Of a stretch of 64,000 nucleotides of DNA, positions 31,148 to 53,647 are shown in pieces. A model generated the notes under the pieces. The model saw only the letters and a program-made list of their open reading frames with translations, was not told where the DNA came from and did no database searches. This DNA comes from Burkholderiales bacterium (GTDB lineage Bacteria; Pseudomonadota; Gammaproteobacteria; Burkholderiales; SG8-39). The stretch's first letter is position 1, and each line of letters starts with the position of its first letter. The DNA lies in assembly GCA_038206915.1 (NCBI GenBank), contig JBBRAI010000002.1:5510-69509 (forward strand), written 5' to 3'. The position numbers and the translations under genes were made by a program.

Positions 31148-31189
31148 TCGGTCTGCGATTCCGGCTGCCATCAATGGCGAATTGGATTC

Positions 31190-34074: not shown

Positions 34075-35102
34075 GCGATCAGGCCGAGGTCGCGCAGCCA
34101 GGCCATCTGCGAGTCATAGGCCTTCTTTGCCAGTGCCGATTTCTTCGACCATTCGGTCCATGTGACATGAGCGAGATCGCGCACCTTGCGCAGTTCTTCC
34201 GGAGTCCAGGTGATTTGCACGATGCCCTTGGGCTTGAGTTCGGCGATAACGCGCACATCGTCCACCGCCACGCGTTCGATCTGGTCCCAGCTCCATTCGC
34301 GCGTCGCGCTCGACAGAATCTGCCGGATGTCCTCGGGCAGCGCCTTCCATGCGGCCATGTTGACGGTGAAGTCCTGGTTTGGCATGGAGTGGGTAAACAT
34401 GGTGGGATATTTGGCGACTTCGTGAAAACCCATGCGCTGGTTCATCGACATCGTGGCCCAGTCGGCCGCGTCGACCACGCCCTTGTCCAGCGCGGAATAC
34501 ACTTCTCCGCCTGGAATTACCACTACCGATCCGCCCATCTTGGTCAGAATCTCGGCGTTGAGACCCTGCGGCGAGCGGATCTTGATGCCCTTGAAGTCGG
34601 CCATATTGTGTATCGGCTTTTTCGATACGATCGACTCCAGGCCCCACCAGGAGACGCCGACGCAGTAGGCGTTGTAACGCGCATAGGCTTCGCGCAGCAG
34701 GTCCAGTCCGCCCTTGTAATGGAACCAGGCATCCGCCTGCCAAGGGTGCTGATAGGCAAAAGCAAGGTCACCGATGACTGCGAACCCGGGGTCTTTGCCG
34801 GTGAAATAGACGGGTGCCGTTGACTGCGCCTGGAGCACGCCGGCCTGCACCGCGTCCAGCGTTTCGAATGCCCCCACGACGGCACCTGAGGCGAAGGGTT
34901 GAATTTCAAGCCGTCCATTGGTCAGTTTACCGACACGGGTACAGAAGTCCTGAAACACCTTGTATGTAAGCTCGGCCGAACTCCACATCGATTGCGCTTT
35001 CCATTTGATCGTCTGCTGCGACTTGACGATCGCGGGAAATCCCAGGCTGGCGGCACCTGCGGCGGCCGCGCCGGTGATAAATCTGCGACGCTGGATACTC
35101 AT
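34071..35102 (-). CDS. TRAP transporter substrate-binding protein (DctP family, Tat-type signal)
   Basis: The N-terminus MSIQRRRFITGAAAAGAASLGFPA is a twin-arginine signal. The remainder is a DctP-like body. Confidence 0.85.
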   Translation of the reverse strand: MSIQRRRFITGAAAAGAASLGFPAIVKSQQTIKWKAQSMWSSAELTYKVFQDFCTRVGKLTNGRLEIQPFASGAVVGAFETLDAVQAGVLQAQSTAPVYFTGKDPGFAVIGDLAFAYQHPWQADAWFHYKGGLDLLREAYARYNAYCVGVSWWGLESIVSKKPIHNMADFKGIKIRSPQGLNAEILTKMGGSVVVIPGGEVYSALDKGVVDAADWATMSMNQRMGFHEVAKYPTMFTHSMPNQDFTVNMAAWKALPEDIRQILSSATREWSWDQIERVAVDDVRVIAELKPKGIVQITWTPEELRKVRDLAHVTWTEWSKKSALAKKAYDSQMAWLRDLGLIA

Positions 35103-35197: not shown

Positions 35198-35222
35198 ACT
35201 ACGATGATATATCAGTCGTAGT
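35198..35222. promoter_or_regulatory. operator-like palindrome ACTACGA-TGATATATCA-G-TCGTAGT in the TRAP/PhyH divergent region
   Basis: Read directly. The core TGATATATCA is at 35205-35214. A second half-site, caacATATCAc, is at 35228-35238. Confidence 0.55.
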
Positions 35223-35292
35223 CACGCAACATATCACCCGCGATTCTTTCATGCAAGCCGGTGGTGCTGGTCCCGTATAAGAGGAGCAAACA

Positions 35293-36126
35293 ATGTCGAA
35301 GTCGCTGTCCGTCGAAGCCGTGCGGCATTACCAGAGTAATGGCTATCATTTCCCGGTGCCGGTGCTCAGCCGGGAGGAGGCGGCGCATTATCGCCGCTGC
35401 CTGGAGCAGCACGAGGCCAAAACCGGCAAACCGCTGCAGGGCAATTGGCGGCACAAGACGCACCTTATCTTTACCTGGGCGGACGAGCTCGCGCACCATC
35501 CGAAGATTCTCGACGCCGTGGAGGATGTGATCGGCCCGGATATTCTCTGCTGGACCACAAATTTCTTCATTAAGGAAGCGAACAACCCCGGCTTTGTCTC
35601 TTGGCATCAGGACTCGACCTACTGGGGCCTCGATCCGGACGAAGTAATCACTGCATGGGTTGCCTTTACAGACGTGACGCCCGAAAACGGCTACATGCAG
35701 TTCATCCCCGGCAGCCACAAGATCGACCAGTTGCCGCACGTCGATACGTTTCACAAGGACAACCTGCTGTCTCGCGGGCAGGAGATTGCCGTTGAAGTGG
35801 ATAGGTCTAAAGCTGTCGGAATCCCGTTGCGCGCTGGGGAAATGTCGCTGCACCACATCAAGTTGGTGCACGGCTCCGAGGCAAACCGCAGCAACGACAG
35901 GCGCATCGGCCTCGCGATCCGCTACATTCCGACATATGTGCGCCAGACCAAGATTCGCGACTCGGCGATGCTGGTGCGCGGCACCGATAAGTATCGCCAT
36001 TTCGACTACGAACCGCGGCCCCGCGCCGACTTGGACGATGCGGCGCAGGCTGCACATGCCGATGCAGTGGCGCGCCAGGTAAAGGCGCTGTACCAAGGCA
36101 CCAACAAGCAGGAATTTCGCGCCTGA
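35293..36126 (+). CDS. phytanoyl-CoA dioxygenase (PhyH) family Fe(II)/2-oxoglutarate dioxygenase, copy 1
   Basis: The 277-aa ORF follows a GAGGAG RBS. It has the WHQDSTYW (H-x-D) motif, the distal His in LVHGSEAN, and RIGLAIRY. Confidence 0.8.
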   Translation: MSKSLSVEAVRHYQSNGYHFPVPVLSREEAAHYRRCLEQHEAKTGKPLQGNWRHKTHLIFTWADELAHHPKILDAVEDVIGPDILCWTTNFFIKEANNPGFVSWHQDSTYWGLDPDEVITAWVAFTDVTPENGYMQFIPGSHKIDQLPHVDTFHKDNLLSRGQEIAVEVDRSKAVGIPLRAGEMSLHHIKLVHGSEANRSNDRRIGLAIRYIPTYVRQTKIRDSAMLVRGTDKYRHFDYEPRPRADLDDAAQAAHADAVARQVKALYQGTNKQEFRA

Positions 36127-36199
36127 GTGTGCGCTCCGCACTGGCGCCTGCGGCGTCCGGGCGGCCGGCTACCCCGCTAATTTATCCGAAGGAGTCACC

Positions 36200-37063
36200 G
36201 TGGCTGAAGAACGCAAGAAACTGACGGTGCCCGATCTGAAGGAAGCGAAGAAATCCGGCCGTAAGCTTGCGATGGCCTCGATTCCGGACTACCCATCGGC
36301 AGTCTGGGCCGAGCGCGCCGGGCTGGATATCCTCGGCATCGGCGATAGTCTGGGCATGGTGAGCTATGGCTTCTCCAATACGCTGCCGGTGACGGTGGAC
36401 ATGATGATCCAGCATTGCCAGGCGGTGCGCCGTGGCGCGCCCAACACGTTCAATCTGGTGGCGATGCCGTACGGCAGCTATCCCAACCCGGACGTCGCCG
36501 TGACCAACGCGCTGCGTTTCATGAAGGAGGGCGACGTGGACTGCGTCAAGATCCAGGGCGGGCGCGACAAATTTCCCATCCTGAAGGCGATCGCCGACGC
36601 CGGCGTGCCGTTGATGAGTCACGTCGGCATGTGCCCGCATTTCGTGCACCAGTACGGCGGCTTCAAGCTGCAGGGCAAGACAGCGGATGAGGCGTTGAAA
36701 ATCATTGATGACGCCGTCGCGATCCAGGAAGCCGGCTGCATCGGTTTCGAAATCGAGGCGGTGCCGGCGCCGGTCGCGTGCGCGGTGGACGCAGCGGTAG
36801 ATATCTTCACCTTCGGCATCGGCGCCGGCAGCGCCAGCTGCGGTCAGCTGCTGCTCGCGTTCGATCTTCTGGGCGTGTTCGATCAGTTCAAGCCGAAATT
36901 CACCAAGCGCTATGCCAACATTTCGCAAATCGCCGTGGATGCCCTCAAGCAATACGCCGCCGAAGTGCGCAGCGGGCAGTTTCCGGACGCGGAACACAGC
37001 TACACAATGAAGCCGGAGGAGATCGCACGGTTGGAACAGGTCACCGGCCGGAAGCTGCAATAG
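36200..37063 (+). CDS. 3-methyl-2-oxobutanoate hydroxymethyltransferase (PanB) family protein, copy 1
   Basis: It has a GTG start after a GAAGGAG RBS. PanB motifs are present: IGDSLGMV, RRGAPN, VKIQGG, GHVGMCPH and FEIEAVP. The usual GIGAG..DGQIL reads GIGAGSASCGQLL here. Confidence 0.8.
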   Translation: MAEERKKLTVPDLKEAKKSGRKLAMASIPDYPSAVWAERAGLDILGIGDSLGMVSYGFSNTLPVTVDMMIQHCQAVRRGAPNTFNLVAMPYGSYPNPDVAVTNALRFMKEGDVDCVKIQGGRDKFPILKAIADAGVPLMSHVGMCPHFVHQYGGFKLQGKTADEALKIIDDAVAIQEAGCIGFEIEAVPAPVACAVDAAVDIFTFGIGAGSASCGQLLLAFDLLGVFDQFKPKFTKRYANISQIAVDALKQYAAEVRSGQFPDAEHSYTMKPEEIARLEQVTGRKLQ

Positions 37064-37090
37064 AAAACGGCGCGGGATCCGCGCCGTTTG
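37064..37090. terminator. bidirectional rho-independent terminator between the convergent PanB-like and SBP genes
   Basis: There is a perfect 11-bp stem, aaacggcgcgg/ccgcgccgttt, with loop gat. A/T tracts lie on both sides. Confidence 0.7.
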
Positions 37091-37109
37091 AGTCACCAGG
37101 CCAGGGAGA

Positions 37110-38420
37110 TCAGCCGTAGTAGCGTTTGGCGCGCTTTTCAGCTTCGGCCGCCGCTTCTTTCGCGGTCTTTTGCCCAATGCAGGCCGACGCAAACATGTCG
37201 ACCACGATCCAGTCGGCCATGCATGCCGCGGACGCATAACCCAGGCTGCCGGCATAGCTGTGCGGCTGCATGCGGGCGACAACATGCTTGAACGGCAGGT
37301 ATTTCGGGTCGTCGTTCCAGAATTTGTTGTCGTCGTAGGCCTTGAGCGGGTGGCTGACGTAGCCGAGCGACGCAGCCTGCCAGGGCTCGTACTGCTCGCG
37401 TTCCCACATGAAGCGCAGATACTCCTTCGCCGCATTCGGATACTTGCTGTACTTGAACAAGAACGCCTGCGACAGCAGATGAAGCTCGGTCGGCCTGCCG
37501 ATCGGCCCGACGATCATGGGCGCGTGGTTCATGTCGGCCGCCACCGCCTGCTTCGCCGGGTCGGTCGAAGTCTTCCCTGCGTAATAGATCGAGATGCCGT
37601 TCGAGGTGAGGCTGATCTTGCCTTCAAGGAAGGCGTTGTTGTTGGATACGCCGCTCCACCCGCCGGTGCCCTCGATGAAGGTCTTGGAAAGCTGCTGCAG
37701 ATACTCGATCGCTTTGATGGTTTCCGGGCTGTTGATCGCGACCTGATTCTTTTCGTCCACCATTTTGCCGCCGAAGCCCCAGAGGATGTTGTGCATCCAG
37801 GTTTCGGAATCACCGGTTGCATGTGACAAGGCGAAACCGGGCGGGTGACCGTTCTTTTGCAGCGCCTGACACAGCTTGAGATAGTCTTCAAAGTTAGTCG
37901 GAAATTTGTCGAATCCCGCCTCTTTCACCCAGGACACGCGGTAATTAAGCAAGGCTCCCGAGGCACCCAGCGGCAAGCCGATCCAGCGCCCGTTTTTGGT
38001 CGTGCCATAGACGCGCGCCGTCGGAAACCAGCCGCCGTATTTCTTGCCCAGGTACTCGGCGAGGTCGGTCAGATCGACCAGCTTATCCGGATAGAGATGC
38101 GGATCGTCGAGCCAGCCGACGATAATGTCGGGTCCCGCGCCGACGTTTGCGGCAACCGCCGCCTTGGGTCGCACATCTTCCCAGTTCTCGTTGTCCGTGC
38201 GCACCGGAATGCCGTATTTTTCGCTGAACTTCTTCGTGTTGGCCAACCACATATCCTCGTCAGGCTGCACGAATCGCTTCCAGCGCAGCACGCGTAGCTT
38301 GGCGTCTTTCTCCGGCTTGAAGCTGGTTTGCGCCTGCGCTTTCTTGACCCAGAACATCGGGCCCATCGCGGCCATGGCACCCATGCCGCCGACGATTCTC
38401 CGTCTAGTTTGGTTTGTCAT
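37110..38420 (-). CDS. ABC transporter substrate-binding protein (extracellular solute-binding family 1, CUT1 sugar-type; Tat-like signal)
   Basis: The 436-aa ORF follows an AAAGGAGG RBS. The N-terminus is MTNQTRRRIVGGMGAMAAMGPMFWVKKAQA. Confidence 0.8.
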   Translation of the reverse strand: MTNQTRRRIVGGMGAMAAMGPMFWVKKAQAQTSFKPEKDAKLRVLRWKRFVQPDEDMWLANTKKFSEKYGIPVRTDNENWEDVRPKAAVAANVGAGPDIIVGWLDDPHLYPDKLVDLTDLAEYLGKKYGGWFPTARVYGTTKNGRWIGLPLGASGALLNYRVSWVKEAGFDKFPTNFEDYLKLCQALQKNGHPPGFALSHATGDSETWMHNILWGFGGKMVDEKNQVAINSPETIKAIEYLQQLSKTFIEGTGGWSGVSNNNAFLEGKISLTSNGISIYYAGKTSTDPAKQAVAADMNHAPMIVGPIGRPTELHLLSQAFLFKYSKYPNAAKEYLRFMWEREQYEPWQAASLGYVSHPLKAYDDNKFWNDDPKYLPFKHVVARMQPHSYAGSLGYASAACMADWIVVDMFASACIGQKTAKEAAAEAEKRAKRYYG

Positions 38421-38447: not shown

Positions 38448-39326
38448 CTACCTGGCGACTTTGCTCATCTCAAAAAACCGCTTTTGCGAAGCGGTCTGGT
38501 TTTCGTAGATCGATCCCTGATTGAGTGCCGGTGGCAACGGCATGCGCGCCGGACAATCGACAAGGCGCGGAACGATGGTTTCTTCGCCGCAAAGCAGGCG
38601 CTCTTTGAAATCATCGTAGTCGGGGATTCCAAGCAATGGAAACGCGTCTGCCGCGCTAACCTCATACAGCAGAAGTCCGCGCGACCGGAGCGAAGTATTC
38701 TGCGCCGATCCATGCACTGTGCGCACGTGATGGAATGAGCACGATCCGGCCGCCCCGATGCAGGGAACGGCATCGGCGAAACGCAGGCCTGCGGCCTCGA
38801 AGTCCATGGCGCCGCAGAAGCGGCCATCGGTGCCGTGGTGGTCATAAGTTGGCCCTTTATGCGTGCCTGGAACGATATAGAGCGCGCCGTTCTCGACGGT
38901 GGTGTCGTCCAGCATTACGCCTACCGCAAGCAGATCGTCGTTGGTATGCGGATAAAACGCCCAGTCCTGGTGCCATTCGACCGGCGAACCGAAACCGGGC
39001 GCCTTAAGATTCAGCTTGGATCCGTGCAGGCGCACGCTCGCGCCGAGCAGATCGCGCAGGATTCCAAGCAGCTTGGGCGAGCGGGCGAATTCCGCAAATA
39101 TCGGATTCACCAGGTGCGGCGACTTGATGCGGCGTACGCGGGGTTCCGTGCTGCTATGGCCCGGTTCAAGGTCATACACCTTGTCGTGGGTCTTGACGGC
39201 GCGTGAACGTTCGACAAGCTCCGCGAGCACGCTCCTCATCTGCGTCCGGATGGCATCGTCAAGCACGCCTTCGACGACGATCGCCCCGACGTCGTTGTAT
39301 TCCTCGATTTGAGCCCTGGTCAGCAT
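38448..39326 (-). CDS. PhyH family Fe(II)/2-oxoglutarate dioxygenase, copy 2
   Basis: The 292-aa ORF follows a GGAGGA RBS. It has WHQDWAFYPH (H-x-D) and the distal His in RTVHGSAQN. Confidence 0.8.
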   Translation of the reverse strand: MLTRAQIEEYNDVGAIVVEGVLDDAIRTQMRSVLAELVERSRAVKTHDKVYDLEPGHSSTEPRVRRIKSPHLVNPIFAEFARSPKLLGILRDLLGASVRLHGSKLNLKAPGFGSPVEWHQDWAFYPHTNDDLLAVGVMLDDTTVENGALYIVPGTHKGPTYDHHGTDGRFCGAMDFEAAGLRFADAVPCIGAAGSCSFHHVRTVHGSAQNTSLRSRGLLLYEVSAADAFPLLGIPDYDDFKERLLCGEETIVPRLVDCPARMPLPPALNQGSIYENQTASQKRFFEMSKVAR

Positions 39327-39381: not shown

Positions 39382-40284
39382 CTACTCCTTCACCGCGCCG
39401 GTCATGCCGGCAACGTAGTGTTCGACAAAAAACGAGTAAAGCAGGGCTACCGGCAGCGAGCCGAACAGGGCGCCCGCCATGAGCGAGCCCCAGTGGTAGA
39501 CGTCGCCGTCGACCAGCTCGGTGAGAACGCCCACCGGAATCGTCTTGTTCTCCGACGAGGAGATGAAGGTCAGCGCATAGATGAATTCGTTCCATGACAG
39601 GGTGAATGCGAATATCCCTGCCGAGATCAGTCCGGGGACCGCCAGCGGCAGCACGATTTTCGTCAGGATCTGCATGCGGGTCGCGCCGTCGACCAGCGCG
39701 CACTCCTCGAGTTCGAACGGAATCGACTTGAAATACCCCATCAACAGCCAGGTGCAGAACGGAATCAGAAAGGTCGGATAGGTCAGGATCAGCGCCCAGC
39801 GCGAATCAAACAGACCCAGTTTGTACACCATGGTCGCCAACGGAATGAAAAGAATCGAGGGCGGTACGAGGTAGGCGCCATAGATGCTCAGTCCAACCCA
39901 GCGGCTGCCTTTGAAGCGCAAACGCTCGATTGCGTAGGCGGCGAGCACGCTGGCAAAAAGGGAAATCACGGTGGCGGTTCCGGACACCAAAAAGGTGTTC
40001 CATAGCCAGTCCGGGTACGAGGTCTCGAACAGCAGCTTCTTGATATTGTGCAGCGTGGGATTGAATACCCAGAACGGGTTGTTCTTTGCGTAGTCGTAGA
40101 TATCGTCGTTGCTCTTGAAAGTAGTGATCACCATCCAGTAGAAAGGAAAAAGCAGGACGAACGTGAAAACCATCAGCGGCAGGTAGACAGTCACGAATTT
40201 GCGTTGCCGCGTCAACAGGAAATCCATTCCACCTTCGGAATGCAGCTTTTCCTCGGACCCCGGGGTAGTGAGCGCTTGTGTCAT
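39382..40284 (-). CDS. carbohydrate-type ABC transporter permease (MalG-like)
   Basis: The 300-aa polytopic protein has the EAA loop ECALVDGATRMQILTKIVLPLAVPG. Confidence 0.85.
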   Translation of the reverse strand: MTQALTTPGSEEKLHSEGGMDFLLTRQRKFVTVYLPLMVFTFVLLFPFYWMVITTFKSNDDIYDYAKNNPFWVFNPTLHNIKKLLFETSYPDWLWNTFLVSGTATVISLFASVLAAYAIERLRFKGSRWVGLSIYGAYLVPPSILFIPLATMVYKLGLFDSRWALILTYPTFLIPFCTWLLMGYFKSIPFELEECALVDGATRMQILTKIVLPLAVPGLISAGIFAFTLSWNEFIYALTFISSSENKTIPVGVLTELVDGDVYHWGSLMAGALFGSLPVALLYSFFVEHYVAGMTGAVKE

Positions 40285-40288: not shown

Positions 40289-41224
40289 TCAATCCTTGCT
40301 TCCCTGCTGCCAGGCGCGACGTTGCAGCCCGAAAAAGCTGATCAGAATAGCGGCGACCAGGAACGGGACCATCGCTATCGCGATTGCCGCGCCCTCCGCC
40401 ATCTGTCCGCCCGGAATGGCGCGCTGAAACGACAATGTCGCCATCAGGTGCGTGGCGTTCACCGGGCCGCCGCGCGTGATTGCGTAGACGAGTTGAAAAT
40501 CGGTGAAAGTGAACAGCACCGAGAACGTCATCACGATCGCGATGATCGGTGTAAGCAAGGGGTAGGTAATGTGCCGGAATCGCTGCCATTGCGTCGCGCC
40601 GTCTATGGTCGCCGCTTCGTAGAGCGACGGAGAAATCGTCTGCAAGCCGGCAAGAAGGGAAATCGCAACGAACGGGATGCCGCGCCAAATATTGGCGACG
40701 ACGACGGAAATGCGCGCATTCCAGGGGGTGCCGAGAAAATCGATGTAGTGATCGATCAGCCCGGCCTTAATCAGCACCCAGGAGATGATCGAGAACTGGC
40801 TGTCGTACATCCACCAGAACGCGATCGCGGAAAGTGTCGTGGGCACGATCCAGGGCAGCAGCAGCACGGCGCGCATGAATGACTTGAACGCAATGTTTTG
40901 GTTGAGCAGCAACGCGAGTACCAGGCCAAGAAAAAACTTGAACACGCTCGCGACGGCAGTGTAGCCGACGGTGTTGTACACTGACAGCCAGAATACGCTG
41001 TCCTGAAACAGCGACTCGTAGTTTGCCAGTCCGATAAAAACACCCGGCCGCCCGATCTTGGTGTCGGTCAGCCCGAGCCAAAAGCCGAGGCCGAGGGGAT
41101 AGGTCAGGAACACCAGCAGAATCGCCGCTGCCGGCAGCATAAATATGAACCCCAGCGCGTCGGCGCTGTTATTGATGCGGTCCAGCAGGCTCTTGCGCGA
41201 TGACCTTGCCAAGGGCTTCTCCAA
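40289..41224 (-). CDS. carbohydrate-type ABC transporter permease (MalF-like)
   Basis: The 311-aa polytopic protein has the EAA loop EAATIDGATQWQRFRHITYPLLTP. Confidence 0.85.
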   Translation of the reverse strand: MEKPLARSSRKSLLDRINNSADALGFIFMLPAAAILLVFLTYPLGLGFWLGLTDTKIGRPGVFIGLANYESLFQDSVFWLSVYNTVGYTAVASVFKFFLGLVLALLLNQNIAFKSFMRAVLLLPWIVPTTLSAIAFWWMYDSQFSIISWVLIKAGLIDHYIDFLGTPWNARISVVVANIWRGIPFVAISLLAGLQTISPSLYEAATIDGATQWQRFRHITYPLLTPIIAIVMTFSVLFTFTDFQLVYAITRGGPVNATHLMATLSFQRAIPGGQMAEGAAIAIAMVPFLVAAILISFFGLQRRAWQQGSKD

Positions 41225-41330
41225 ATTTGGATCGAGCTAAGTCGGACAAAGTGCGGGCGTCAACCATTACAGAGCGCGCGCTGGATATCGACCGATGCGA
41301 GGTGGCCAGTTTAGACCTTATTCACCCATA

Positions 41331-43262
41331 TCATGCATGACTGGTCGCCGACGCGGCAAGCAGCCGCTTCACCAGCGCAACCGTTTCCGGCGCGCTGGGG
41401 GCAAAGCCGTCGGCGCCTATCTGGCGCGCGTATTCCGCGGTAATCGCGGCGCCGCCGACAATGACTTTGCAGTGTGCACGCAGATTGCGTTGGTCCAGAG
41501 CCTTGATGACTTCGCGCATTTCGACCATGGTCGTGGTTACCAGCGCGGACAGGCCGAGGACGTCGGGTTTGAATTCGACGATCTGGTCGCAAAACTTTTC
41601 GCGCGCTACATTGATGCCCAGGTCGCGCACCTCGAAGCCCACGCCTCGGAGCAGCGTCACCACCAGATTCTTGCCGATGTCGTGCATGTCGCCTTTGACC
41701 GTCCCGATCAGCACCCTGCCGCTTTGGGACTCGCCGCCCGCGGCCAGCAGCGGTTCCAGCACCTCCACCGCCGCGGTCATGGCGCGGGCCGCAAGCAGCA
41801 CTTCGGGGATGAATGCCTCGCCCGTCTCCATGCGCCTGCCGACGGCGCTTATCGCGTCGATAAGCCCCTGCTCGAGGATTGCCTTGGCCTTGATGCCCCG
41901 GTCGAGCAGGGCCTGCACATGGGCCTTGATGTCCTTGTGCTTGCCTTTGGTCACGTCCAGGCGCACTTGCGCGAAGATGTCGTCTGCATGGTTTTGCGCC
42001 GCCGCCGGACCGGACTGTGCCGCCGCGGCAGGCGCCGGCGCGGGACGATGCGCGCTAGCGGCGAGTGGCAGGCGGCCTTCGCGTTCGACGCGCTCGCCGA
42101 TACGCTGCAGGCGGGAGAATACGGCGTCGGGCGGAACCTGGTCGGCAATGCCCACCAGCATGCGCCTGCCCGGCGCCACGGCTTTGAACAGCTGATCCAT
42201 GTAGGCTTCGAAGTCGGCGTCGCTGGTCTGTGGCAGCACGATGGTCGAGGGAATGCCGCCGCACAGGGTCAGATGGCCGCTCCAGCGCCGGTAGTATTCT
42301 GCGAGGGAGATCTTGGTCATCGGCGCCGGACAGATGGACTCCGCGATATGCATGCCTGAGTCGCGGATCAGGTCCATCAATCCTTCGTTCTCGCCGTCCG
42401 TATGGCCCATGACCAGTTTGCCCGCCGCGCCCAGCTCGCGCGAGGCCTTGCGGATCCACGGCGTAATCTCCTGTTCGAAGTACGGCGCATAGGTCAGCAT
42501 GTCATCGTAATTGGCACCCCACCACACCACTTCCGCCGGGGATTTGCACAGGATCTGCAGCATCTTGTCGAACAGGTGCTCCATCTTGCCTGCCAGTTCG
42601 CGCATCTTCGCGTTGTGATCCTTGTAGTGGAAGTAGAACTGCGTCGGATCGAGCAGGTCGCGCTGGATCTGGTGAATCGGCGAGGCTCCCATGAAGCCCT
42701 GCGCCACGGCGACACCATCGTCGCGCATCTCCTCGCGCACCCAGCGCTCGAAGCGCTCGAAGTTGGGCACGATGCCCATATGTTCATAAATGTAGCCCGC
42801 CGGAGCATAGTCTTCCGGCGACTTGATCAGATGGTCGACGATCATCGGGCTGGTGATGCCCAGGCGCTGCGAGGATTCGTCATAGAACATGGTCGAATTG
42901 ACCATGCCGAGCGGTGTGTGATACTCGACGCGGATGTGGCCGCTGTCGTGCCGCACCTTTATTTCCACGTCACGCGGCATCACGAAGTCGTACAGCGTAT
43001 CGCGCGTGCTGAACAGGCCGATGCCGCGATGCAGGTAATCCTTCTGCGACTCCGGATCGAGTATGTTGTCGGCAAATCGAAAATACACGGTCCAGCCTTC
43101 GGCGCGCGCAATCTCGTTCTGCGTGCGGCCGGCGTGCTGCTTGGGCAGGGTGCCGGATGTCGAGTTGGCGAGATACCAAAGGTCAAGCCGCGGTACGTAG
43201 GGCAGGCGATCGACTTCCTCTCCGCGGAATGCGGCAAGCATGCGGCTCTTGTGCGTATACAT
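41331..43262 (-). CDS. fusion protein: URO-D/MtaA-like methyltransferase domain + B12-binding (corrinoid) domain (CmuA-like architecture), copy 1
   Basis: The 643-aa ORF follows an AGGAG RBS. The N-terminal ~400 aa resembles the uroporphyrinogen-decarboxylase family (LPYVPRLDLWY..., ...GGIPSTIVL..., ...VGIADQVPPDAVF). An Ala/Pro linker follows, then a helical cap and a Rossmann B12 domain with GDMHDIGKN (D-x-H-x-x-G), SALVTTT and VGGAA. Confidence 0.8.
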   Translation of the reverse strand: MYTHKSRMLAAFRGEEVDRLPYVPRLDLWYLANSTSGTLPKQHAGRTQNEIARAEGWTVYFRFADNILDPESQKDYLHRGIGLFSTRDTLYDFVMPRDVEIKVRHDSGHIRVEYHTPLGMVNSTMFYDESSQRLGITSPMIVDHLIKSPEDYAPAGYIYEHMGIVPNFERFERWVREEMRDDGVAVAQGFMGASPIHQIQRDLLDPTQFYFHYKDHNAKMRELAGKMEHLFDKMLQILCKSPAEVVWWGANYDDMLTYAPYFEQEITPWIRKASRELGAAGKLVMGHTDGENEGLMDLIRDSGMHIAESICPAPMTKISLAEYYRRWSGHLTLCGGIPSTIVLPQTSDADFEAYMDQLFKAVAPGRRMLVGIADQVPPDAVFSRLQRIGERVEREGRLPLAASAHRPAPAPAAAAQSGPAAAQNHADDIFAQVRLDVTKGKHKDIKAHVQALLDRGIKAKAILEQGLIDAISAVGRRMETGEAFIPEVLLAARAMTAAVEVLEPLLAAGGESQSGRVLIGTVKGDMHDIGKNLVVTLLRGVGFEVRDLGINVAREKFCDQIVEFKPDVLGLSALVTTTMVEMREVIKALDQRNLRAHCKVIVGGAAITAEYARQIGADGFAPSAPETVALVKRLLAASATSHA

Positions 43263-43331
43263 GGGTTCTTGCTCCTGGACTAACGCCGATTTGGCGGTGT
43301 GGCTCTTCTACGTGCGGTTCGTAATGTGGCG

Positions 43332-44252
43332 CTACATCATCGCGCCAGCGCCACGGGCCGCCGCCACGTCTTCCTTCTGCTGCAGCGAAAATATTGAGGT
43401 ATAACCACCCGACCAGTCCGGCGGGATCAGACACGGGCGCGGGTCGTGGTGGGCGAACGCGGCGCGCTTGCCGCGGATGATCATCTGGTCGTGCTTGGGC
43501 TTGATCGGGTTCACGGTGTAGGGGAAGGCATCGGCCGAGGTCAGCGTATACAGAAGCAGCGGCCGGCCGAGGTCCGAGTCGTTCCTGGGGGAGCCGTGGA
43601 TAGTGCGGCAATTGTGCAGCGTAAGCGACCCGGCTGGGCCGGTGAGGTACACGGCCTTGGATAGCTCGATTCTGGCCAGATCAGTCGCGCTGAGGCAGCC
43701 GACCCAGTTGCCCTGGTCGTCATATTGGGTAAGCAGTGGTTCTATCAGGTGGCTCTTTGGGATCACGCCCAGCGGACCCTGATCCATGCCGCAGTCGTAG
43801 ATATAGGTGCCGACAGTCAGGGGCGAATAGTTGGTGTGCGGCCAGAACGAAATATCGTAGTGCCATTTCACCTCTTCACCGCCCTTTCCCCACTTGAAAT
43901 TCAGTTTGGAGTGGTGGAACTTCACGTCGGGCCCGACCAAGTCGGTCACCGCGTCTGGCATGACGGACTTGGTGCAGTATTCCCAGAATACCGGATGGTG
44001 CTCCGCCGGGTTCGACACGCGCCGCAGGCGCGGCGCATCGGGCCGGTGGTCGGGCTCCAGGTCGAAAATGGCGTCCGACGTAGTGACCTTGCGGCTGCGC
44101 TCAATCATCTCGTCGGTTGCGGCGCGCAGCTTATGGATCCATTCGTCGCCGATGATTTTTTCCAGAAGAATGTAGCCCTCGGAAAAATAGGCCTCGCGCT
44201 GCGCCTGGGTCAGCACGCGCGGGGGAATGGCAAGGATCTGTTCTGGGGTCAT
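43332..44252 (-). CDS. PhyH family Fe(II)/2-oxoglutarate dioxygenase, copy 3
   Basis: The 306-aa ORF follows an AAGGAG RBS. It has WHYDISFWPH (H-x-D) and the distal His in RTIHGSPRN. It is clearly paralogous to copy 2. Confidence 0.8.
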   Translation of the reverse strand: MTPEQILAIPPRVLTQAQREAYFSEGYILLEKIIGDEWIHKLRAATDEMIERSRKVTTSDAIFDLEPDHRPDAPRLRRVSNPAEHHPVFWEYCTKSVMPDAVTDLVGPDVKFHHSKLNFKWGKGGEEVKWHYDISFWPHTNYSPLTVGTYIYDCGMDQGPLGVIPKSHLIEPLLTQYDDQGNWVGCLSATDLARIELSKAVYLTGPAGSLTLHNCRTIHGSPRNDSDLGRPLLLYTLTSADAFPYTVNPIKPKHDQMIIRGKRAAFAHHDPRPCLIPPDWSGGYTSIFSLQQKEDVAAARGAGAMM

Positions 44253-44280: not shown

Positions 44281-44985
44281 CTAATGACCGAGGTAGAGCC
44301 TTTTGATAGCGTCGGTCTTCTGCAGATCTTCCGATCGCCCCTCGATCGATATGTTGCCGGATTCGAGCAGGTAGGCCCGCGTGGCGCACTCGAGCGCCAT
44401 GGCTGCGTTCTGCTCAGCCAGCAGGATTGTCATGCCGCCGTCCGCCAGCTTGCGCACGGTCTCGGCGATTTCGTCGACTACGATCGGCGCCAGACCCAAG
44501 GTCGGCTCGTCGAGCAACAGGCACTTGGGTTTCGCCATCAAGCCACGCCCAATCGCGAGCATCTGCTGCTCCCCGCCGGACATGGACCCGGCCTTCTGCG
44601 CGTGGCGCTCGCGCAGCCGTGGAAACAGACTGAATACGTATTCGAGATCTTCATCGGCATTGTCGCGATCTGTTCGATGGTAAGCGCCCATCACCAGATT
44701 CTCCGCCACTGTGAATTTGACGAAAATCTGGCGCCCTTCGGGCACTAGCACCAGGCCGCGGTTAACGCGCTCGTGGGTGGCCAGCGCGGAAATATCCGCG
44801 CCGTCGAGATGCAATGCGCCTGAAGTTGCCTTCTTTAAGCCTAGCGCCGTTCGCAAGGTCGTGGTCTTGCCGGCTGCATTGGCGCCGATCAGGGAAACGA
44901 CCTCGCCCGCGCCGACCGTCAGGCTGAGGTCCTTCAGCACATGGTTCTTACCGTAGTGAACGTTAATGCGCTCAAACTCGATCAT
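44281..44985 (-). CDS. ABC transporter ATP-binding protein (LivF-like)
   Basis: ORF 44281..45144 trimmed to MIEFERINVHYGKNHVLKDLS. Walker A is GANAAGKTT, the signature is MSGGEQQ and Walker B is LLLDEP. Confidence 0.85.
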   Translation of the reverse strand: MIEFERINVHYGKNHVLKDLSLTVGAGEVVSLIGANAAGKTTTLRTALGLKKATSGALHLDGADISALATHERVNRGLVLVPEGRQIFVKFTVAENLVMGAYHRTDRDNADEDLEYVFSLFPRLRERHAQKAGSMSGGEQQMLAIGRGLMAKPKCLLLDEPTLGLAPIVVDEIAETVRKLADGGMTILLAEQNAAMALECATRAYLLESGNISIEGRSEDLQKTDAIKRLYLGH

Positions 44986-45748
44986 GGCGATGGCCCAGAT
45001 AGGCTGCGACCACGTTGGGGTCGCGCAGTACTGCTTCAGGGGTGCCTTCGGCGATCTTGGCGCCATGGTGCAGGCTGATCGCGCGATCAGCAAGTTTGCC
45101 AAGAAAGCCGACCTTGTGGTCGATGACACACAGGGTCGTGCCATGCGTACGCAAGTCGCGCAAGACCGCTTCCAGATTTTCGATCTCGGTTTGGCCCAGA
45201 CCCGACGTCGGCTCGTCCAGCAGCAACAACTCGGGTTCGCACATCAGCGCCATCGCCACACCCAGCATCTTTTCTTCGCCGTAGGACAGTTCCGCCGCAG
45301 TCTGGTCGCGAGCCGTTTCGAGACGGCACAGACCGATCACCTCTGCGGCGCGCCGCCCGAGATCGCCTCCCGCGTGACCTGCTTCCGGGTTGAACAGCGT
45401 CGCGATGCGGCGCCAGCCCAGACGTCGTTTCAGCATCAGGTGCCCCGCGATCATCAGGTGCTCGAGCACGCTGAGTTCGGTGAATAGCTGGGGGTTCTGG
45501 AAAGTTTTCACCACGCCGGCCGCCGCGATGTCGTGCGGCCGGTTGCCGTGTATCTCGCGCGCCTTCCAGCGGATTGTCCCGCTTGACGGCACGAGCACGC
45601 CTGCGATGAGGCTGAGCAGCGTGGTTTTTCCAGAGCCGTTCGGCCCGAATACGCCGACGATTTCGCGCTGATCGATCGAAAAGGATATATCCGAAACGGC
45701 GGTGAGCCCGCCGAAACGCTTGGTCAGACCGGAGATTTCAAGCAGCAT
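44972..45748 (-). CDS. ABC transporter ATP-binding protein (LivG-like)
   Basis: ORF 44972..45790 trimmed to MLLEISGLTKRFGG. Walker A is GPNGSGKTT, the signature is LSYGEEK and Walker B is LLLDEP. Confidence 0.85.
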   Translation of the reverse strand: MLLEISGLTKRFGGLTAVSDISFSIDQREIVGVFGPNGSGKTTLLSLIAGVLVPSSGTIRWKAREIHGNRPHDIAAAGVVKTFQNPQLFTELSVLEHLMIAGHLMLKRRLGWRRIATLFNPEAGHAGGDLGRRAAEVIGLCRLETARDQTAAELSYGEEKMLGVAMALMCEPELLLLDEPTSGLGQTEIENLEAVLRDLRTHGTTLCVIDHKVGFLGKLADRAISLHHGAKIAEGTPEAVLRDPNVVAAYLGHRHDRV

Positions 45749-46694
45749 GCCGGCGCCGTCCGAGTGCGGACATCGCTCCATATATGCCATTTGGCATGAG
45801 GAGAATGGTGAAAATCAAGATAGCTCCGTAGACAATGGAGCGGATTTCGGCACTGAAGTGGATCAGGTGCGGTAGTGCGGTGAGTACCAGCGCTCCGATC
45901 ACTGGGGCTGCGACTGCGTTACGCCCACCCAACAGCACCATTGCAACAATTGCGAGCGACTGGTCGATCGACAGAAAGCCGGGTTCTATCGAACCGAGGT
46001 AAAAGGAATACAGGCTGCCGGTGATCGCCGCGATGATATTGCCGGCCACGAACGCCGCAATCTTGTAGCGGAATACATTGATGCCGAGCGTATCGCCCAG
46101 CTCGTCGTTCAGCCGAATGGCGGCGAAACAGCGCCCCATCCATGAATTCACCAGCCGCCAGCACACCAGCACCGTCAGCGCGAGCGAAACCAGGCTGACG
46201 TAATACCACATCGGCGTTCCGGCCAGTTTGACGATGCCTTGCCCGGGTATCCACAGGGTCGGCTTGTCTTGCAGGATGATGCCGAGCGAACCGTTGGTGA
46301 CGTCGTTCCAGTTCAGCACTACCAGCCGCGCCATTTCGGAGAAGGCGAGCGTCACCACGGCGAAGTAGAACTCCTTCAGCCTGAAGCGAAAGCAAATAGT
46401 TCCAACGATGATTGAAAGCACCATCACCAGGAAGGCGGCGAAGAGTGTGCCGATCCAGAACGAGACGCCCAGCCGGGCCATGGCGATATAGGTTGCGTAG
46501 GCCGAGATGCCGAAGGCGGCGGCGTGAAACATGGAGAGCTGTCCGGTGAAGCCGAAGATCAGGTTGAAGCTCACCGCCAGCATTCCGAGCAGGAAGGAAA
46601 ACACAAGGATGGTCAGGACAAAGTCGCTTTTCACCATTGTAGGCAGCAGGGCGAGAACCGCGACTACGGCGAGCAGGCGCGCGCCCGCGCTCAT
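45738..46694 (-). CDS. branched-chain-amino-acid-type ABC permease (LivM-like)
   Basis: The 318-aa polytopic protein shares an ATGA overlap with the upstream permease gene. Confidence 0.85.
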   Translation of the reverse strand: MSAGARLLAVVAVLALLPTMVKSDFVLTILVFSFLLGMLAVSFNLIFGFTGQLSMFHAAAFGISAYATYIAMARLGVSFWIGTLFAAFLVMVLSIIVGTICFRFRLKEFYFAVVTLAFSEMARLVVLNWNDVTNGSLGIILQDKPTLWIPGQGIVKLAGTPMWYYVSLVSLALTVLVCWRLVNSWMGRCFAAIRLNDELGDTLGINVFRYKIAAFVAGNIIAAITGSLYSFYLGSIEPGFLSIDQSLAIVAMVLLGGRNAVAAPVIGALVLTALPHLIHFSAEIRSIVYGAILIFTILLMPNGIYGAMSALGRRRHAA

Positions 46695-47551
46695 TTGCGC
46701 CCTGCGAACAATCCGGCGGGTTTGAACAGCAGGATCGCGACCAGAAAGACAAGGCCGTAGGCATCGCGGAAGGCGATGGGCAGGTAGATCGAGCCGACGC
46801 CCTCGGTCACGCCAAGTATGACGCCGCCGAACAGCGAGCCCATCACGCTGCCGATGCCGGCAAGGATGGCCGACTCGACGGCCTTGAGAATGTACATACT
46901 GCCCATGGTCGGCTCGATTGTATAAAGGCTTGCGTACAGCGCGCCGCCCAGTCCGGCGAGGCCGGTCGAGTAGACGACGACGGCGGACTGAAGCAGCTTG
47001 GTGCGCACGCCCATTAGCTCCGCCGCCTCCGGGTTCTGCGCGTATGCGTAGGCGGCACGGCCGATCCAGGTGCGCGTGAGCGCAGCGTAGGTGGCGAAGA
47101 TGACTGCGAGCAGCACCAGAAACACCACCAGCTTCATCTTCGGCACTATTAGACCGAAGATATGGAATACGCCGGGAAGGACGTAATCCATATCCTTCGG
47201 GGTGGACGTCCAGATGAGCAATGCCGCACCTTCCATGACGGCAATCAGGCCGATTGAAACGAGGAGGCCGTTGACCAGGTTGTTGCGCGTGAAGCGGAAC
47301 AGCGTCTGGTCCGCGATCAGTCCGGCGAGCGCGGTAATCGCCACCGCGCTGGGCACTGCCAGCGCGTAAGGAAGATGCGCGCCGTCGGTCAGGTACCAGG
47401 CCATGTAGGCGCCCAGCATCATGAACACGCCGAGGGCGAAGTTCACGATGCCGGTGATGCCGAACGTGAGGGTGACGCCGAGGGCGACTATCCCGTACAG
47501 CGTTCCGACTATTGCGCCATTGAGGAGCTGGCCGACTATCAGTTGCCCCAC
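46691..47551 (-). CDS. branched-chain-amino-acid-type ABC permease (LivH-like)
   Basis: The 286-aa polytopic protein has a GTG start 4 nt after the SBP stop. Confidence 0.8.
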   Translation of the reverse strand: MGQLIVGQLLNGAIVGTLYGIVALGVTLTFGITGIVNFALGVFMMLGAYMAWYLTDGAHLPYALAVPSAVAITALAGLIADQTLFRFTRNNLVNGLLVSIGLIAVMEGAALLIWTSTPKDMDYVLPGVFHIFGLIVPKMKLVVFLVLLAVIFATYAALTRTWIGRAAYAYAQNPEAAELMGVRTKLLQSAVVVYSTGLAGLGGALYASLYTIEPTMGSMYILKAVESAILAGIGSVMGSLFGGVILGVTEGVGSIYLPIAFRDAYGLVFLVAILLFKPAGLFAGRK

Positions 47552-47555
47552 GGAA

Positions 47556-48734
47556 TTAATTTGGTTCGATGTGGGTCACGGTGATCGCGCCACCTTTCTT
47601 CATATGCAGGATGTCGAAGTCGAATACCGCCTCGCCGGTCTTGTCATAGCGGATATTCCAGACGCCATGATACGTAAACGACATCAGCGCCTGCTTGACC
47701 TTGGCTACGTCCTCGACCGTGCCCGCCTTCTTCATTGCGTCGACCAGCATATACACGTGGTCATAGCAGGACGAAGAGCAAAGCGGTGCCTGATCGTACG
47801 GGAAATCACGTTTATAAAACGCCTTGTATGCTTCGATAAATGCCTTGGTCTTCGGTTCGGTCTTCTCGGCCTGCTCGAAATACTTCGGCAGGTAGGCGAT
47901 ATAGTCGTCGATCAGGTCTTTGTTCTTCAGGGCAGGCCCCATCGACCCGCGTACCGTGAAGAATTTCTTGAACAAGCCCGTCTCCGTCGCTTGACGCACG
48001 ATATCGTAGAGCACGGCGTCGACATAACCTGGAAACAGATACTCGGGCTTGTTGGCCGCGAGCTTGGCGAGCGGGGCGGAGAAGTCCTTGGTGCCGGGCT
48101 CGAACATCTCCACCTGCAGGTCGATGCCTGCGGCCTTGAAGATAGGCGCATAAATGTCCACCGCTACCTTGCCGAAGGCGTCGTTCTGGAACAGCATCGC
48201 CGCCTTCTTTACGCCCTGCTTCTTGAGGTAATTGACCATCAACTGACCGAAGCCATCGGATCCCGCGTCCCAGTTCCAGGTGCGCAGGAGGTACTCGTGA
48301 TCGGGTGTGCCAAGCTTCGCATGGATGGCGGTGGCGCCGCCCATCAGCAGGAACTTGCCGTTGTTCTGCGTCAGATAGGGCTCGATGCCGTTGAATACGT
48401 TGGTGAGAAACGGACCGAATATGTACTTGACCTTGTCCTGCTCCAGCAGCTGCTTGGCTATGATCTGCGCTTCCTGCGGATTTGCGCGCGTGTCAGGCGA
48501 GATCAGTTCGAGCTTGTAGGTTTTGGCACCTACCTTGAAGCCGCCGGACTTGTTGATTTCTTCAACCGCCAGCTTCGCCCCCTGGCTGCCCATCCAGCCG
48601 TAGGTGGCGAGCGTGCCGGTCTGCGCTTCGATCTGCCCCAGTTTAACGATGTCCTGCGCTGCGGCTGGCGCCGCAGTGCACGCGGCCAGCAAAGTTGCGG
48701 CCGCGCACATTTTCAACAGATTGCCTGCATTCAT
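47556..48734 (-). CDS. ABC transporter substrate-binding protein (Leu/Ile/Val-binding / amide-urea family fold)
   Basis: The 392-aa ORF follows a GGAGGAG RBS and has a signal peptide ending AAAQ. It is the first gene of a Liv-type operon. Confidence 0.8.
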   Translation of the reverse strand: MNAGNLLKMCAAATLLAACTAAPAAAQDIVKLGQIEAQTGTLATYGWMGSQGAKLAVEEINKSGGFKVGAKTYKLELISPDTRANPQEAQIIAKQLLEQDKVKYIFGPFLTNVFNGIEPYLTQNNGKFLLMGGATAIHAKLGTPDHEYLLRTWNWDAGSDGFGQLMVNYLKKQGVKKAAMLFQNDAFGKVAVDIYAPIFKAAGIDLQVEMFEPGTKDFSAPLAKLAANKPEYLFPGYVDAVLYDIVRQATETGLFKKFFTVRGSMGPALKNKDLIDDYIAYLPKYFEQAEKTEPKTKAFIEAYKAFYKRDFPYDQAPLCSSSCYDHVYMLVDAMKKAGTVEDVAKVKQALMSFTYHGVWNIRYDKTGEAVFDFDILHMKKGGAITVTHIEPN

Positions 48735-51867: not shown

Positions 51868-52053
51868 GTAGCCGCCGCGCCGGAGCGGCGCCCAGGCCGG
51901 CGCCGTCGAGGTGTTCTGGCACGCGTTTGTCGATGATCACGGATTCCGGCTTCATATGCTCCCCGTTAAAATTCGCCAAACTACCGCCATATGCCGTTCC
52001 GACCAGTGCGGAACGTATCCGGGGCCGGAGAGGGTCCGGGGCGGCATTCTTGG

Positions 52054-53627: not shown

Positions 53628-53647
53628 ATTGGACTCCTTGTCGTGTG

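Follow-up and report, generated by a model that had tools for sequence, protein, structure and literature searches.

FUS1, a gene on a 64,000-nt stretch of DNA from a Burkholderiales bacterium (SG8-39; assembly GCA_038206915.1, contig JBBRAI010000002.1, positions 5,510-69,509 of the forward strand; hereafter the window), encodes a single polypeptide in which a methyltransferase of the URO-D fold is fused to a corrinoid protein. We found that FUS1 is probably a substrate:corrinoid methyltransferase (MT I) joined to its own carrier, feeding methyl groups to tetrahydrofolate (THF). The observations behind this reading are the architecture of the protein, its fold, its His-on cobalamin motif, its membership of a protein family and a conserved gene linkage. 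By analogy with characterised systems, methyl groups would move from substrate to THF, the fusion would share the second methyltransferase (MT II) and the activase encoded in the same gene island, and the purpose would be catabolic.

Architecture of FUS1

A first-pass annotation of the window had read FUS1 as copy 1 of a 643-residue fusion protein. The open reading frame (ORF) is real: it begins with ATG, and a public collection holds an identical protein (P0001). Two plus-strand ORFs antisense to it (41295-42359 and 42402-43283) resemble the shadows commonly met in GC-rich DNA. ORFs were annotated by Pfam, NCBIfam and Rfam profile scans and by a PDB sequence search with the window proteins; the resulting features, including the domain boundaries within FUS1, are listed in Table 1. 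The second copy, FUS2, is 52% identical to FUS1 over its full length and has the same Pfam architecture; its orthologue in a syntenic locus of a relative (L085) is, like the FUS2 product read from the probable GTG start, 636 residues long.

The N-terminal barrel includes a beta-sheet-rich stretch at about residues 91-143. The full-length AlphaFold2 (AF2) model of FUS1 (pLDDT 81.6, pTM 0.73) places cap helices at residues 431-508 and a Rossmann fold at residues 516-621. Between barrel and cap lies the Ala/Pro-rich linker that the first-pass annotation had pointed out (RPAPAPAAAAQSGPAAAQ). It is the sole segment of the full-length model with pLDDT <50 and is disordered, and its length and sequence differ among FUS1 homologues.

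The C-terminal module has the cap and Rossmann domains (PF02607 and PF02310) and the D-x-H-x-x-G motif (residues 525-530) that had been ascribed to it. In alignments of FUS1 relatives, residues G524, D525, H527, D528, G530, S572, L574, G603 and G604 are invariant. Among NCBIfam models, the C-terminal 210 residues score 208 bits on MtgC (NF047996), 167 on pyl_corrinoid (TIGR02370) and 164 on MtbC (E = 1e-62 to 1e-48), and the PDB sequence matches of this half of the protein are methyltransferase corrinoid proteins (1y80, E = 6e-45; 7xcn; 3ezx). The same PDB search with full-length FUS1 matched the corrinoid half only and returned nothing for the barrel. Judged by these matches, the module is of the methyltransferase-cognate type and is predicted to hold its cobalamin His-on. 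A CarH-like photoreceptor or a B12-mutase was also considered and ruled out, since the best matches are methyltransferase-cognate corrinoid proteins and the gene context is one of one-carbon (C1) transfer.

The barrel and its place in the UroD superfamily

The N-terminal barrel is only faintly recognisable to sequence profiles. The Pfam URO-D model scores 21.5 bits, below its cut-off of 23.9, and covers residues 216-387 only, in the C-terminal half of the barrel; as an internal control, the HemE encoded in the window scores 447 bits on the same model (PF01208). NCBIfam gave no match for the N-terminal 400 residues, and the TIGR01463, MtaA and MtbA models matched neither FUS1 nor FUS2 at E <= 0.01. 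The fold was therefore assigned from an AF2 model of residues 1-402 (pLDDT 88, pTM 0.89) searched with Foldseek against the PDB. All of the 25 best matches are UROD/HemE structures or Methanosarcina mazei MtaA (4ay7/4ay8), with E = 1e-10 to 4e-8, TM scores of 0.50-0.66 and identities of 10-15%. As modelled, the resemblance to URO-D and MtaA holds at the level of fold and not at the level of sequence; the first-pass description of a URO-D/MtaA-like barrel is borne out in the former sense and fails in the latter.

To place the barrel within the superfamily, we used a profile hidden Markov model (HMM) built from 100 diverse family members. On this model a stand-alone MtaA-like protein of the same window (55179-56312) reaches 58 bits, compared with 19.8 for the CmuA N-domain and 4.3 for HemE; the CmuA reference throughout is the Methylorubrum extorquens CM4 protein from plasmid pCMU01. 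An hhalign comparison of the barrel-family profile likewise put the MtaA-like protein first, with a probability of 97.8% (E = 7e-13, 343 columns), against 6% for HemE and 3% for the CmuA N-domain. The MtaA-like protein itself matches PRK06252 and TIGR01463. Because both sets of scores favour the MtaA-like protein over HemE and CmuA, the barrel appears to be a deep and separate branch of the UroD superfamily, allied to the corrinoid methyltransferases and not to the decarboxylases. A grouping with true uroporphyrinogen decarboxylases, against which the first-pass annotation had set its reading, was thus found by none of the URO-D profile, the family HMM and hhalign.

Conservation was measured across 101 diverse family representatives. 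The most constant positions are H287 (99 of 101) and D289 (97) of the H-T-D-G-E-N signature at the end of a barrel strand, followed by D151 (95), E308 (E or D, 95), W29 (92), K282 (92), D374 (91), R384 (90) and R25 (86); C311 is kept in 43. The conserved polar residues N251, D253, H287, D289, E308 and D374 map to the C-terminal ends of strands in the predicted barrel, which is the usual position of a TIM-barrel active site. Roles that we propose for individual residues are read from conservation alone. The H-x-D-G-E-N stretch falls where CmuA has H-T-C, in a low-confidence hhalign register that is about one residue off. MtaA-type enzymes carry the same H-x-C...C site as CmuA, and in enzymes of the MtaA/CmuA type this Cys-based zinc site serves thiol activation. 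Zinc-free MT I enzymes of the UroD superfamily have been described, namely CdmB and an O-demethylase of Moorella thermoacetica (PMC13222342).

Distribution and conserved gene context

A search with full-length FUS1 gave 1080 matches, and the top 120 are all about 640 residues long and 64-87% identical to it. Those among them that have been named are called 'corrinoid protein', 'cobalamin B12-binding domain-containing protein' or 'methylmalonyl-CoA mutase B12-binding chain'. A search with just the barrel, against clusters formed at 50% identity, gave 1281 matches, of which 613 have E <= 1e-10 and 145 have E <= 1e-30; many of the matches are stand-alone proteins of about 395 residues and several are fused. 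A full-text literature search found no description of this barrel-corrinoid fusion family.

We then scanned the GTDB species representatives, which yielded 386 relatives, and examined the 78 best loci for taxonomy and 80 loci for gene context. The best loci belong to Burkholderiales and other Betaproteobacteria (up to 90% identity), to Acetobacteraceae, Hyphomicrobiaceae and Geminicoccaceae, and in many cases to Thermodesulfobacteriota/'Deltaproteobacteria' (about 50% identity to FUS1). A tblastn search of the PLSDB plasmids found no barrel homologue from cultured organisms save a partial match on Vescimonas fastidiosa plasmid pMM35_01 (L083, 8359-10098), a 579-residue 'cobalamin-dependent protein' that is 32% identical to FUS1 residues 281-622. 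Its neighbours are a homocysteine S-methyltransferase family protein, a DUF2284 protein, an amidohydrolase and a sodium-dependent transporter. This human gut member of the Oscillospiraceae could offer a culturable entry to related fusions.

Neighbouring genes were counted by tblastn with the window proteins within 10 kb on either side of the fusion gene. In 76 of the 80 loci, the barrel is immediately followed by a corrinoid domain. A TRAP transporter is nearby in 36-37 loci, and a CUT1 or LIV ABC importer in some. PanB-like genes (29 loci), FA_hydroxylase (27), GntR (26) and PhyH (21) recur, as do a stand-alone URO-D methyltransferase with a corrinoid protein (26) and a pterin-binding methyltransferase (20); MTHFR (12), RACo (10) and DUF1638 (9) are found less often. 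PanB-like genes are also present in loci of anaerobes, where they adjoin DUF1638. Ketopantoate hydroxymethyltransferase uses methylene-THF; the PanB-like enzymes may liberate a further C1 unit or take one up.

Three sub-clades can be distinguished. In the FUS1 sub-clade (at least 84% identity), every locus has a PhyH gene nearby and the transporter is a CUT1 ABC or a TRAP system; one locus (L084) has a LacI regulator. A sub-clade at 65-75% identity has the fixed order PanB-GntR-fusion-FA_hydroxylase-DctPQM, and the first part of this order, PanB-GntR-fusion, recurs in about 26 loci. FUS2 belongs to the third sub-clade, closest to the versions of Thermodesulfobacteriota (loci L048-L082). Because it is 62-80% identical to proteins from these metagenome-assembled genomes and only 52% identical to FUS1, comparison of the sequences suggests that FUS1 and FUS2 are of separate origin, or that there has been horizontal transfer between anaerobes and Burkholderiales.

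One deltaproteobacterial locus (L082) carries a FUS2-like gene together with a pterin-binding methyltransferase, a TRAP transporter, an MtaA-like protein, a corrinoid protein, DUF1638 and a PanB-like gene. This gene content suggests an anaerobic origin of the core system, with the oxygenases joining it in aerobes. The same locus holds a second fusion of a more canonical URO-D domain (62.8 bits) with a cap and a B12-binding domain (4882-6660, plus strand, 592 residues), so that the domain order of CmuA occurs in more than one URO-D subfamily.

Proposed function

In the scheme that we favour, the FUS1 barrel would bind a methylated small molecule delivered by the adjacent importer and offer its methyl group to Co(I)-cobalamin, which the C-terminal module, swinging on the linker, would keep in the His-on state. 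The resulting CH3-Co(III) would be discharged to THF by the pterin-binding methyltransferase of the island, in a CmuB/MtgA-type MT II step, and the MTHFR would then oxidise the methyl-THF to methylene-THF, serving both energy supply and C1 assimilation. Adventitious Co(II) would be re-reduced by RACo, probably aided by the DUF1638 protein, and B12 would enter through the riboswitch-controlled BtuB-like receptor. FUS2 would run the same cycle on a second substrate. The substrates, or what remains of them after demethylation, would be handled by the PhyH, FA-hydroxylase and PanB-like enzymes.

The first-pass annotation had argued from the gene neighbourhood for an imported substrate other than chloromethane. 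That proposal fits the conserved linkage to importers described above, and because the fusion gene is so consistently coupled to solute importers, chloromethane is unlikely as the substrate. The hints to a substrate class come from the distantly MalE-like binding protein of the CUT1 importer, the LIV-type binding protein, the lactate/alpha-keto-acid-type TRAP binding protein and the PhyH proteins, which distantly resemble EctD and leucine hydroxylase. As a weak guess, the substrate may be a small polar carboxylate or a sugar-like compound with an O-methyl or onium methyl group.

Several observations weigh against assigning FUS1 as an MT I that feeds THF. The barrel is too divergent for any curated methyltransferase model in Pfam or NCBIfam. 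The family has no conserved Cys, and because the Cys-based zinc site of MtaA and CmuA (H-x-C...C) is missing, the chemistry by which the methyl donor would be activated is uncertain. The MT II and activase genes of the window lie 13-17 kb from FUS1 on the opposite strand, and their counterparts are within 10 kb of the fusion in a minority of loci. The window contains no ATPase gene for the CUT1 importer. A simple demethylation scheme leaves the roles of the oxygenases and PanB-like enzymes unexplained, and corrinoid Co(I) chemistry beside O2-dependent oxygenases is unusual. Finally, the 78 best loci are all metagenome-assembled genomes.

A bolder version of the scheme is also conceivable. FUS1 and FUS2 may be founders of a zinc-independent clade of UroD-fold methyltransferases, with which oxygen-respiring Burkholderiales of freshwater, soil and groundwater harvest methyl groups from imported O-methylated or onium-type small carboxylates or sugars, assisted by Fe(II)/2-oxoglutarate and di-iron hydroxylases and by PanB-like enzymes yielding methylene-THF. 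Such a composite C1-to-folate pathway would have no characterised counterpart, and we put it forward as speculative and rather doubtful.

Alternative explanations

The nature of the methyl group taken up by FUS1 can be narrowed in two ways. In one, which is a sub-case of the MT I reading, FUS1 is an O-demethylase like MtvB, OdmB, VdmB or MtoB fused to its carrier and acts on imported methoxy-aromatic acids, O-methyl sugars or uronic acids, or small methoxy-carboxylates. Most characterised bacterial MT I enzymes of the UroD superfamily are O-demethylases (PMC13222342, PMC10418091), and relatives of FUS1 are found in anaerobic Thermodesulfobacteriota. The CUT1/MalK-type importer and the LacI regulator seen in relatives suggest sugar-like substrates, and the binding protein linked to FUS2 is of the LIV type, a family that includes binders of aromatic acids; the conserved His, Asp and Glu residues could protonate or coordinate an ether oxygen. 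However, none of the island ORFs scanned is a gene for ring cleavage or sugar catabolism, and the TRAP binding protein of the window is of the lactate/alpha-keto-acid class. We regard O-demethylation as a possibility worth pursuing, though not the probable answer. In the other, FUS1 would demethylate an onium compound, that is a quaternary ammonium or sulfonium compound such as betaine, a dimethylsulfoniopropionate-like molecule or S-methylmethionine, as a URO-D-fold counterpart of the MttB-family enzyme MtgB. The lack of a conserved Cys-based zinc site suits this proposal, as activated onium methyls should need no metal. The aromatic residues W29, Y30, F262 and Y354 with the acids D151, D253, D289, E308 and D374 could form a cation site, and R25, K282 and R384 could bind a carboxylate; these assignments, however, are drawn only from conservation. 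MtgC models give the best scores for the corrinoid domain, the RamA-like and DUF1638 context is that of aerobic glycine betaine demethylation (PMC12478193), and the PhyH oxygenases resemble amino-acid and ectoine hydroxylases that could strip further N-methyl groups oxidatively. On the other side, CUT1 and TakP-like TRAP transporters are not the usual importers of betaine, and no onium methyltransferase of the URO-D family is known. We judge an onium substrate rather unlikely.

Two further explanations would change the pathway itself. If FUS1 were a genuine CmuA-type dehalogenase of chloromethane or bromomethane and the island a cmu-like pathway, the shared domain order and the presence in the island of a pterin-binding methyltransferase (the cmuB analogue) and an MTHFR (the metF analogue) would be expected, and the missing Cys ligands would match a halomethane MT I that needs no zinc, as CdmB does (PMC13222342). 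Yet the N-domain has no BLASTP likeness to CM4 CmuA, its profile agreement with CmuA is negligible and TIGR01463 does not match; FUS1 keeps a His that is replaced by Gln in CmuA; folD and purU were not found among the island ORFs scanned; and the fusion is steadily linked to solute importers, which a freely diffusing gas does not need, and in L084 to a LacI regulator. We consider a halomethane dehalogenase very improbable. The chemistry could also run in a biosynthetic direction, with methyl-THF methylating the corrinoid and the barrel passing the methyl group to an acceptor, as in a split methionine synthase or a thiol or hydroxyl methylase. The split MetH of Phaeobacter and Ruegeria consists of just such parts, namely a corrinoid protein, a pterin-binding methyltransferase, a RamA-like protein and DUF1638 (PMC5764234, PMC12478193), and an S-methyl_trans gene lies near the homologue in one locus (L003). 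The island ORFs scanned contain no homocysteine-binding domain (PF02574), however, the Cys-zinc site is absent, and the layout is a catabolic one: importer and oxygenase genes accompany each of the two paralogues, FUS2 is preceded by a GntR/FCD regulator gene, and GntR or LacI regulators occur in relatives. We consider biosynthesis very unlikely, and the assignment of FUS1 as a catabolic MT I fused to its carrier remains the one that we prefer.

The genomic island

FUS1 lies in an island that spans about 32.2-61.3 kb of the window (about 29 kb) and comprises two fusion paralogues, three importers, three PhyH genes, one FA-hydroxylase gene, two PanB-like genes and a C1 module (Table 1). Its G+C content (0.58-0.62 at about 30000-56000) is lower than that of most flanking DNA (0.64-0.68), which is consistent with horizontal acquisition. 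As the window is GC-rich, several of its long ORFs are antisense shadows; on the basis of Pfam matches on the other strand, the ORFs 35212-36141, 36182-37435, 51991-52812 and 52740-53648 were rejected as genes and treated as shadows of PhyH, PanB-like and GntR genes.

PhyH genes flank FUS1, as the first-pass annotation had stated, one lying 69 bp upstream and another past the permeases. The product of the upstream gene is distant from EctD and leucine hydroxylase, and that of the downstream gene has EvdO2, leucine hydroxylase and EctD as PDB relatives. The importer that had been described beside FUS1 (a binding protein and two permeases) is present, with the permease genes beginning 106 bp downstream of FUS1, but PhyH splits the permeases from the binding protein and the ATPase is missing. 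Its designation as 'sugar-type' finds some backing in the best PDB match of the binding protein, which is MalE3 (a distant match, E = 4.5e-13), and in the syntenic relative L085, and in nothing further. In L085 a MalK-type ATPase (OB_MalK, TOBE_2; 11965-13041) lies between the fusion gene and the permeases, and because it occupies the same position, it supports the CUT1 assignment of the window importer. The window has there a gap of 106 bp (41225-41330), the gene having been lost or never present.

The other two importers also vary in position. In L006, L007 and L085, a TRAP DctPQM system stands between FUS2 and the PhyH-FUS1 pair, where the window has the LIV-type ABC importer, and in L085 a LIV system lies upstream of the FUS2 orthologue. 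The transporter modules thus appear to have been shuffled between syntenic loci. The LIV-type binding protein is distantly related to LivJ/K, and the DctP of the window is closest to TRAP binding proteins for lactate and alpha-keto acids (PDB 2zzv, E = 2e-73; 7ug8; 2hzk).

At the start of the plus-strand C1 module, the ORF 53658-54476 is conserved in a few loci (L010, L012 and L024); a possible role is that of an accessory protein, either of the Fe-S kind or for handling B12. An ORF of the ParE toxin family (61322-61648, minus strand) lies between the DUF1638 gene and the riboswitch, and a ParE toxin is also found near the homologue in L003. The BtuB-like frame, which runs off the window, has 718 codons, a signal peptide and TonB-box/plug-like sequence. 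Because this receptor and the riboswitch adjoin the island, B12 uptake is encoded beside a B12-dependent set of genes. The left flank of the island also holds PriA and ArgS. About 10 kb to the left of the island is a Peripla_BP_2 binding protein of the BtuF/siderophore type (21522-22373, minus strand), which may be tied to corrinoid or iron uptake.

Table 1. Features of the island and its borders, by position in the window (residue numbers refer to FUS1)
Feature	Position	Strand	Basis or remark
HemE, genuine uroporphyrinogen decarboxylase	29536-30624	-	PF01208, 447 bits; just outside the island
6S (SsrS) RNA	31184-31364	-	61.8 bits
TRAP transporter DctM, DctQ, DctP	32207-35102	-	Pfam; binding protein at 34071-35102
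Third PhyH gene	35293-36126	+	Pfam
PanB-like gene	36200-37063	+	Pfam
SBP_bac_8 binding protein of CUT1-type importer	37110-38420	-	PF13416, 99 bits
Second PhyH oxygenase	38448-39326	-	PF05721, 114 bits; between permeases and binding protein
Two ABC permeases of CUT1-type importer	40289-41224, 39382-40284	-	BPD_transp_1
FUS1, URO-D-fold methyltransferase fused to corrinoid protein	41331-43262	-	ATG start, 643 aa
FUS1 B12-binding Rossmann domain (515-627)	41382-41720	-	PF02310, 96 bits
FUS1 His-on cobalamin ligand motif, D525-M-H527-D-I-G530 (D525-x-H527-x-x-G530)	41673-41690	-	Sequence, alignments
FUS1 B12-binding cap, four-helix bundle (435-503)	41754-41960	-	PF02607, 59 bits
FUS1 Ala/Pro-rich flexible linker (402-426)	41985-42059	-	Sequence, AF2
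FUS1 N-terminal barrel, divergent URO-D-superfamily TIM barrel (1-400)	42063-43262	-	AF2, Foldseek
FUS1 family signature H287-T-D289-G-E-N, end of barrel strand	42387-42404	-	Conservation in 101 representatives
PhyH-family Fe(II)/2-oxoglutarate oxygenase	43332-44252	-	PF05721, 83 bits; 69 bp upstream of FUS1
LIV-type ABC importer	44281-48734	-	Pfam
LIV-type ATPases	44972-45790, 44281-45144	-	
LIV-type permeases	46691-47551, 45738-46694	-	
LIV-type binding protein	47556-48734	-	
FUS2, paralogous fusion	48915-50825	-	Probable GTG start at 50825, 636 aa; ORF reaches 50960
FA_hydroxylase-family membrane di-iron oxygenase	50995-51759	-	PF04116, 35 bits; adjoins FUS2
GntR/FCD regulator	52054-52749	-	Pfam
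PanB-like hydroxymethyltransferase	52746-53717	-	Pfam
Possible Fe-S protein	53658-54476	+	272 aa; faint matches to Fer4, MMACHC, QueG, NapG, E = 5e-4 to 5e-2
Corrinoid protein	54346-55212	+	Pfam, NCBIfam
Stand-alone URO-D/MtaA-like methyltransferase	55179-56312	+	Pfam, NCBIfam
Pterin-binding methyltransferase	56252-57109	+	Pfam, NCBIfam
RACo reductive activase	57156-59051	+	Pfam, NCBIfam
MTHFR	59055-60521	+	Pfam, NCBIfam
DUF1638 protein	60534-61301	+	Pfam, NCBIfam
Cobalamin riboswitch	61731-61944	+	Rfam RF00174, 93.8 bits
TonB-dependent BtuB-like receptor gene	~62050 to window end (64000), runs off	+	Named by eye

Significance

Corrinoid methyl relays in which MT I is fused to its carrier are known; what is new here is an uncharacterised catalytic family, an altered active-site signature and the pairing with oxygenases and PanB-like enzymes. 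Corrinoid-dependent demethylation has long been regarded as a speciality of anaerobes. In 2025, a B12-dependent route was shown to be a major one for glycine betaine in aerobic marine bacteria (PMC12478193). The present locus points to a second and structurally unrelated set of B12 methyltransferases, with a URO-D fold fused to the carrier, that occurs widely among uncultured Burkholderiales, some Alphaproteobacteria and Thermodesulfobacteriota. Identifying the substrate would give a function to more than 1000 orphan protein clusters and would show what methylated compounds lie behind the need for B12 in communities of freshwater, soil and groundwater. The family is also a possible source of oxygen-tolerant demethylases for biocatalysis, and its conserved pairing with PhyH or FA-hydroxylase and PanB-like enzymes may mark a new catabolic logic.

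Comparison with known systems

CmuA, which combines MT I and carrier protein and is served by CmuB as MT II (PMC13222342), has the same N-to-C order as FUS1, with a barrel followed by cap and Rossmann domains, and a similar length (617 versus 643 residues). The likeness is confined to the corrinoid domain, which is 35% identical; BLASTP aligns FUS1 residues 446-632 only, and neither BLASTP nor hhalign (3%) detects a pairwise likeness between the barrels. CmuA has GNTQDIGKN where FUS1 has GDMHDIGKN, so that FUS1 keeps the lower-ligand His and CmuA has Gln, and the H-x-C...C of CmuA stands against H-x-D with a variable Cys in FUS1, in a low-confidence alignment. The neighbours of CmuA are cmuC, folD, purU and cob genes, whereas those of FUS1 are importers, oxygenases and PanB-like genes. 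By these comparisons FUS1 is not a CmuA orthologue, a possibility that the first-pass annotation had left to be settled. Because analogues of cmuB and metF (the pterin-binding methyltransferase and the MTHFR) and RACo share the island, 13-17 kb from FUS1, the pathway logic nevertheless appears Cmu-like even though the enzyme is not CmuA.

The first-pass annotation had also stated that CmuA proteins are the only well-known ones with this domain order. CmuA does share it, but fusions of URO-D and B12-binding domains are not rare. The second fusion of L082 is of another subtype, and there are MtsD, MtsF and MtsH of Methanosarcina acetivorans, in which a URO-D-superfamily methyltransferase and a corrinoid domain are likewise joined in one polypeptide (bioRxiv 10.1101/548461). 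Those proteins, likened here to FUS1 by description, are archaeal, serve coenzyme M or methylsulfide chemistry and have an MT2-type (zinc/thiol) domain. Their domain order is probably the reverse of that in FUS1.

The MtvABC, OdmABCD, VdmB, MtoABCD and CdmBCA systems of anaerobes share with FUS1 a UroD-fold MT I, a corrinoid protein of the methyltransferase type, a likely THF acceptor and a RACo-type activase (PMC13222342), and some of their MT I enzymes are zinc-free, as the FUS1 family appears to be. Unlike these three-component systems, FUS1 has MT I and carrier in one polypeptide, and its hosts are mostly Burkholderiales, presumably aerobic or facultative, with the genes placed beside O2-dependent oxygenases. 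The comparison of FUS1 with MtvB, OdmB, VdmB, MtoB and CdmB is one of descriptions and not of sequences. The mlp clusters (PMC10418091) belong to a different, SCMT-like clade, occur in obligate anaerobes only and have no H4folate methyltransferase gene in the cluster.

Aerobic bacteria do use B12 methyltransferases together with RamA and DUF1638, for which there is genetic evidence from aerobically grown Phaeobacter and Ruegeria (PMC5764234, PMC12478193). The MtgBCD(E) system of Ruegeria pomeroyi and Phaeobacter shares with the FUS1 island a His-on, MtgC-like module (NF047996 being the best model), a pterin-binding methyltransferase, a RamA/RACo-type activase and DUF1638; the 208 bits of FUS1 on NF047996, however, are well under the MtgC cut-off of 370. 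The MT I of that system, MtgB, has the MttB fold (PF06253) and is separate from its carrier, whereas the MT I of FUS1 has the URO-D fold and is fused, and PF06253 had no match in any island ORF scanned. The FUS1 system likely also operates in oxygen-respiring Proteobacteria.

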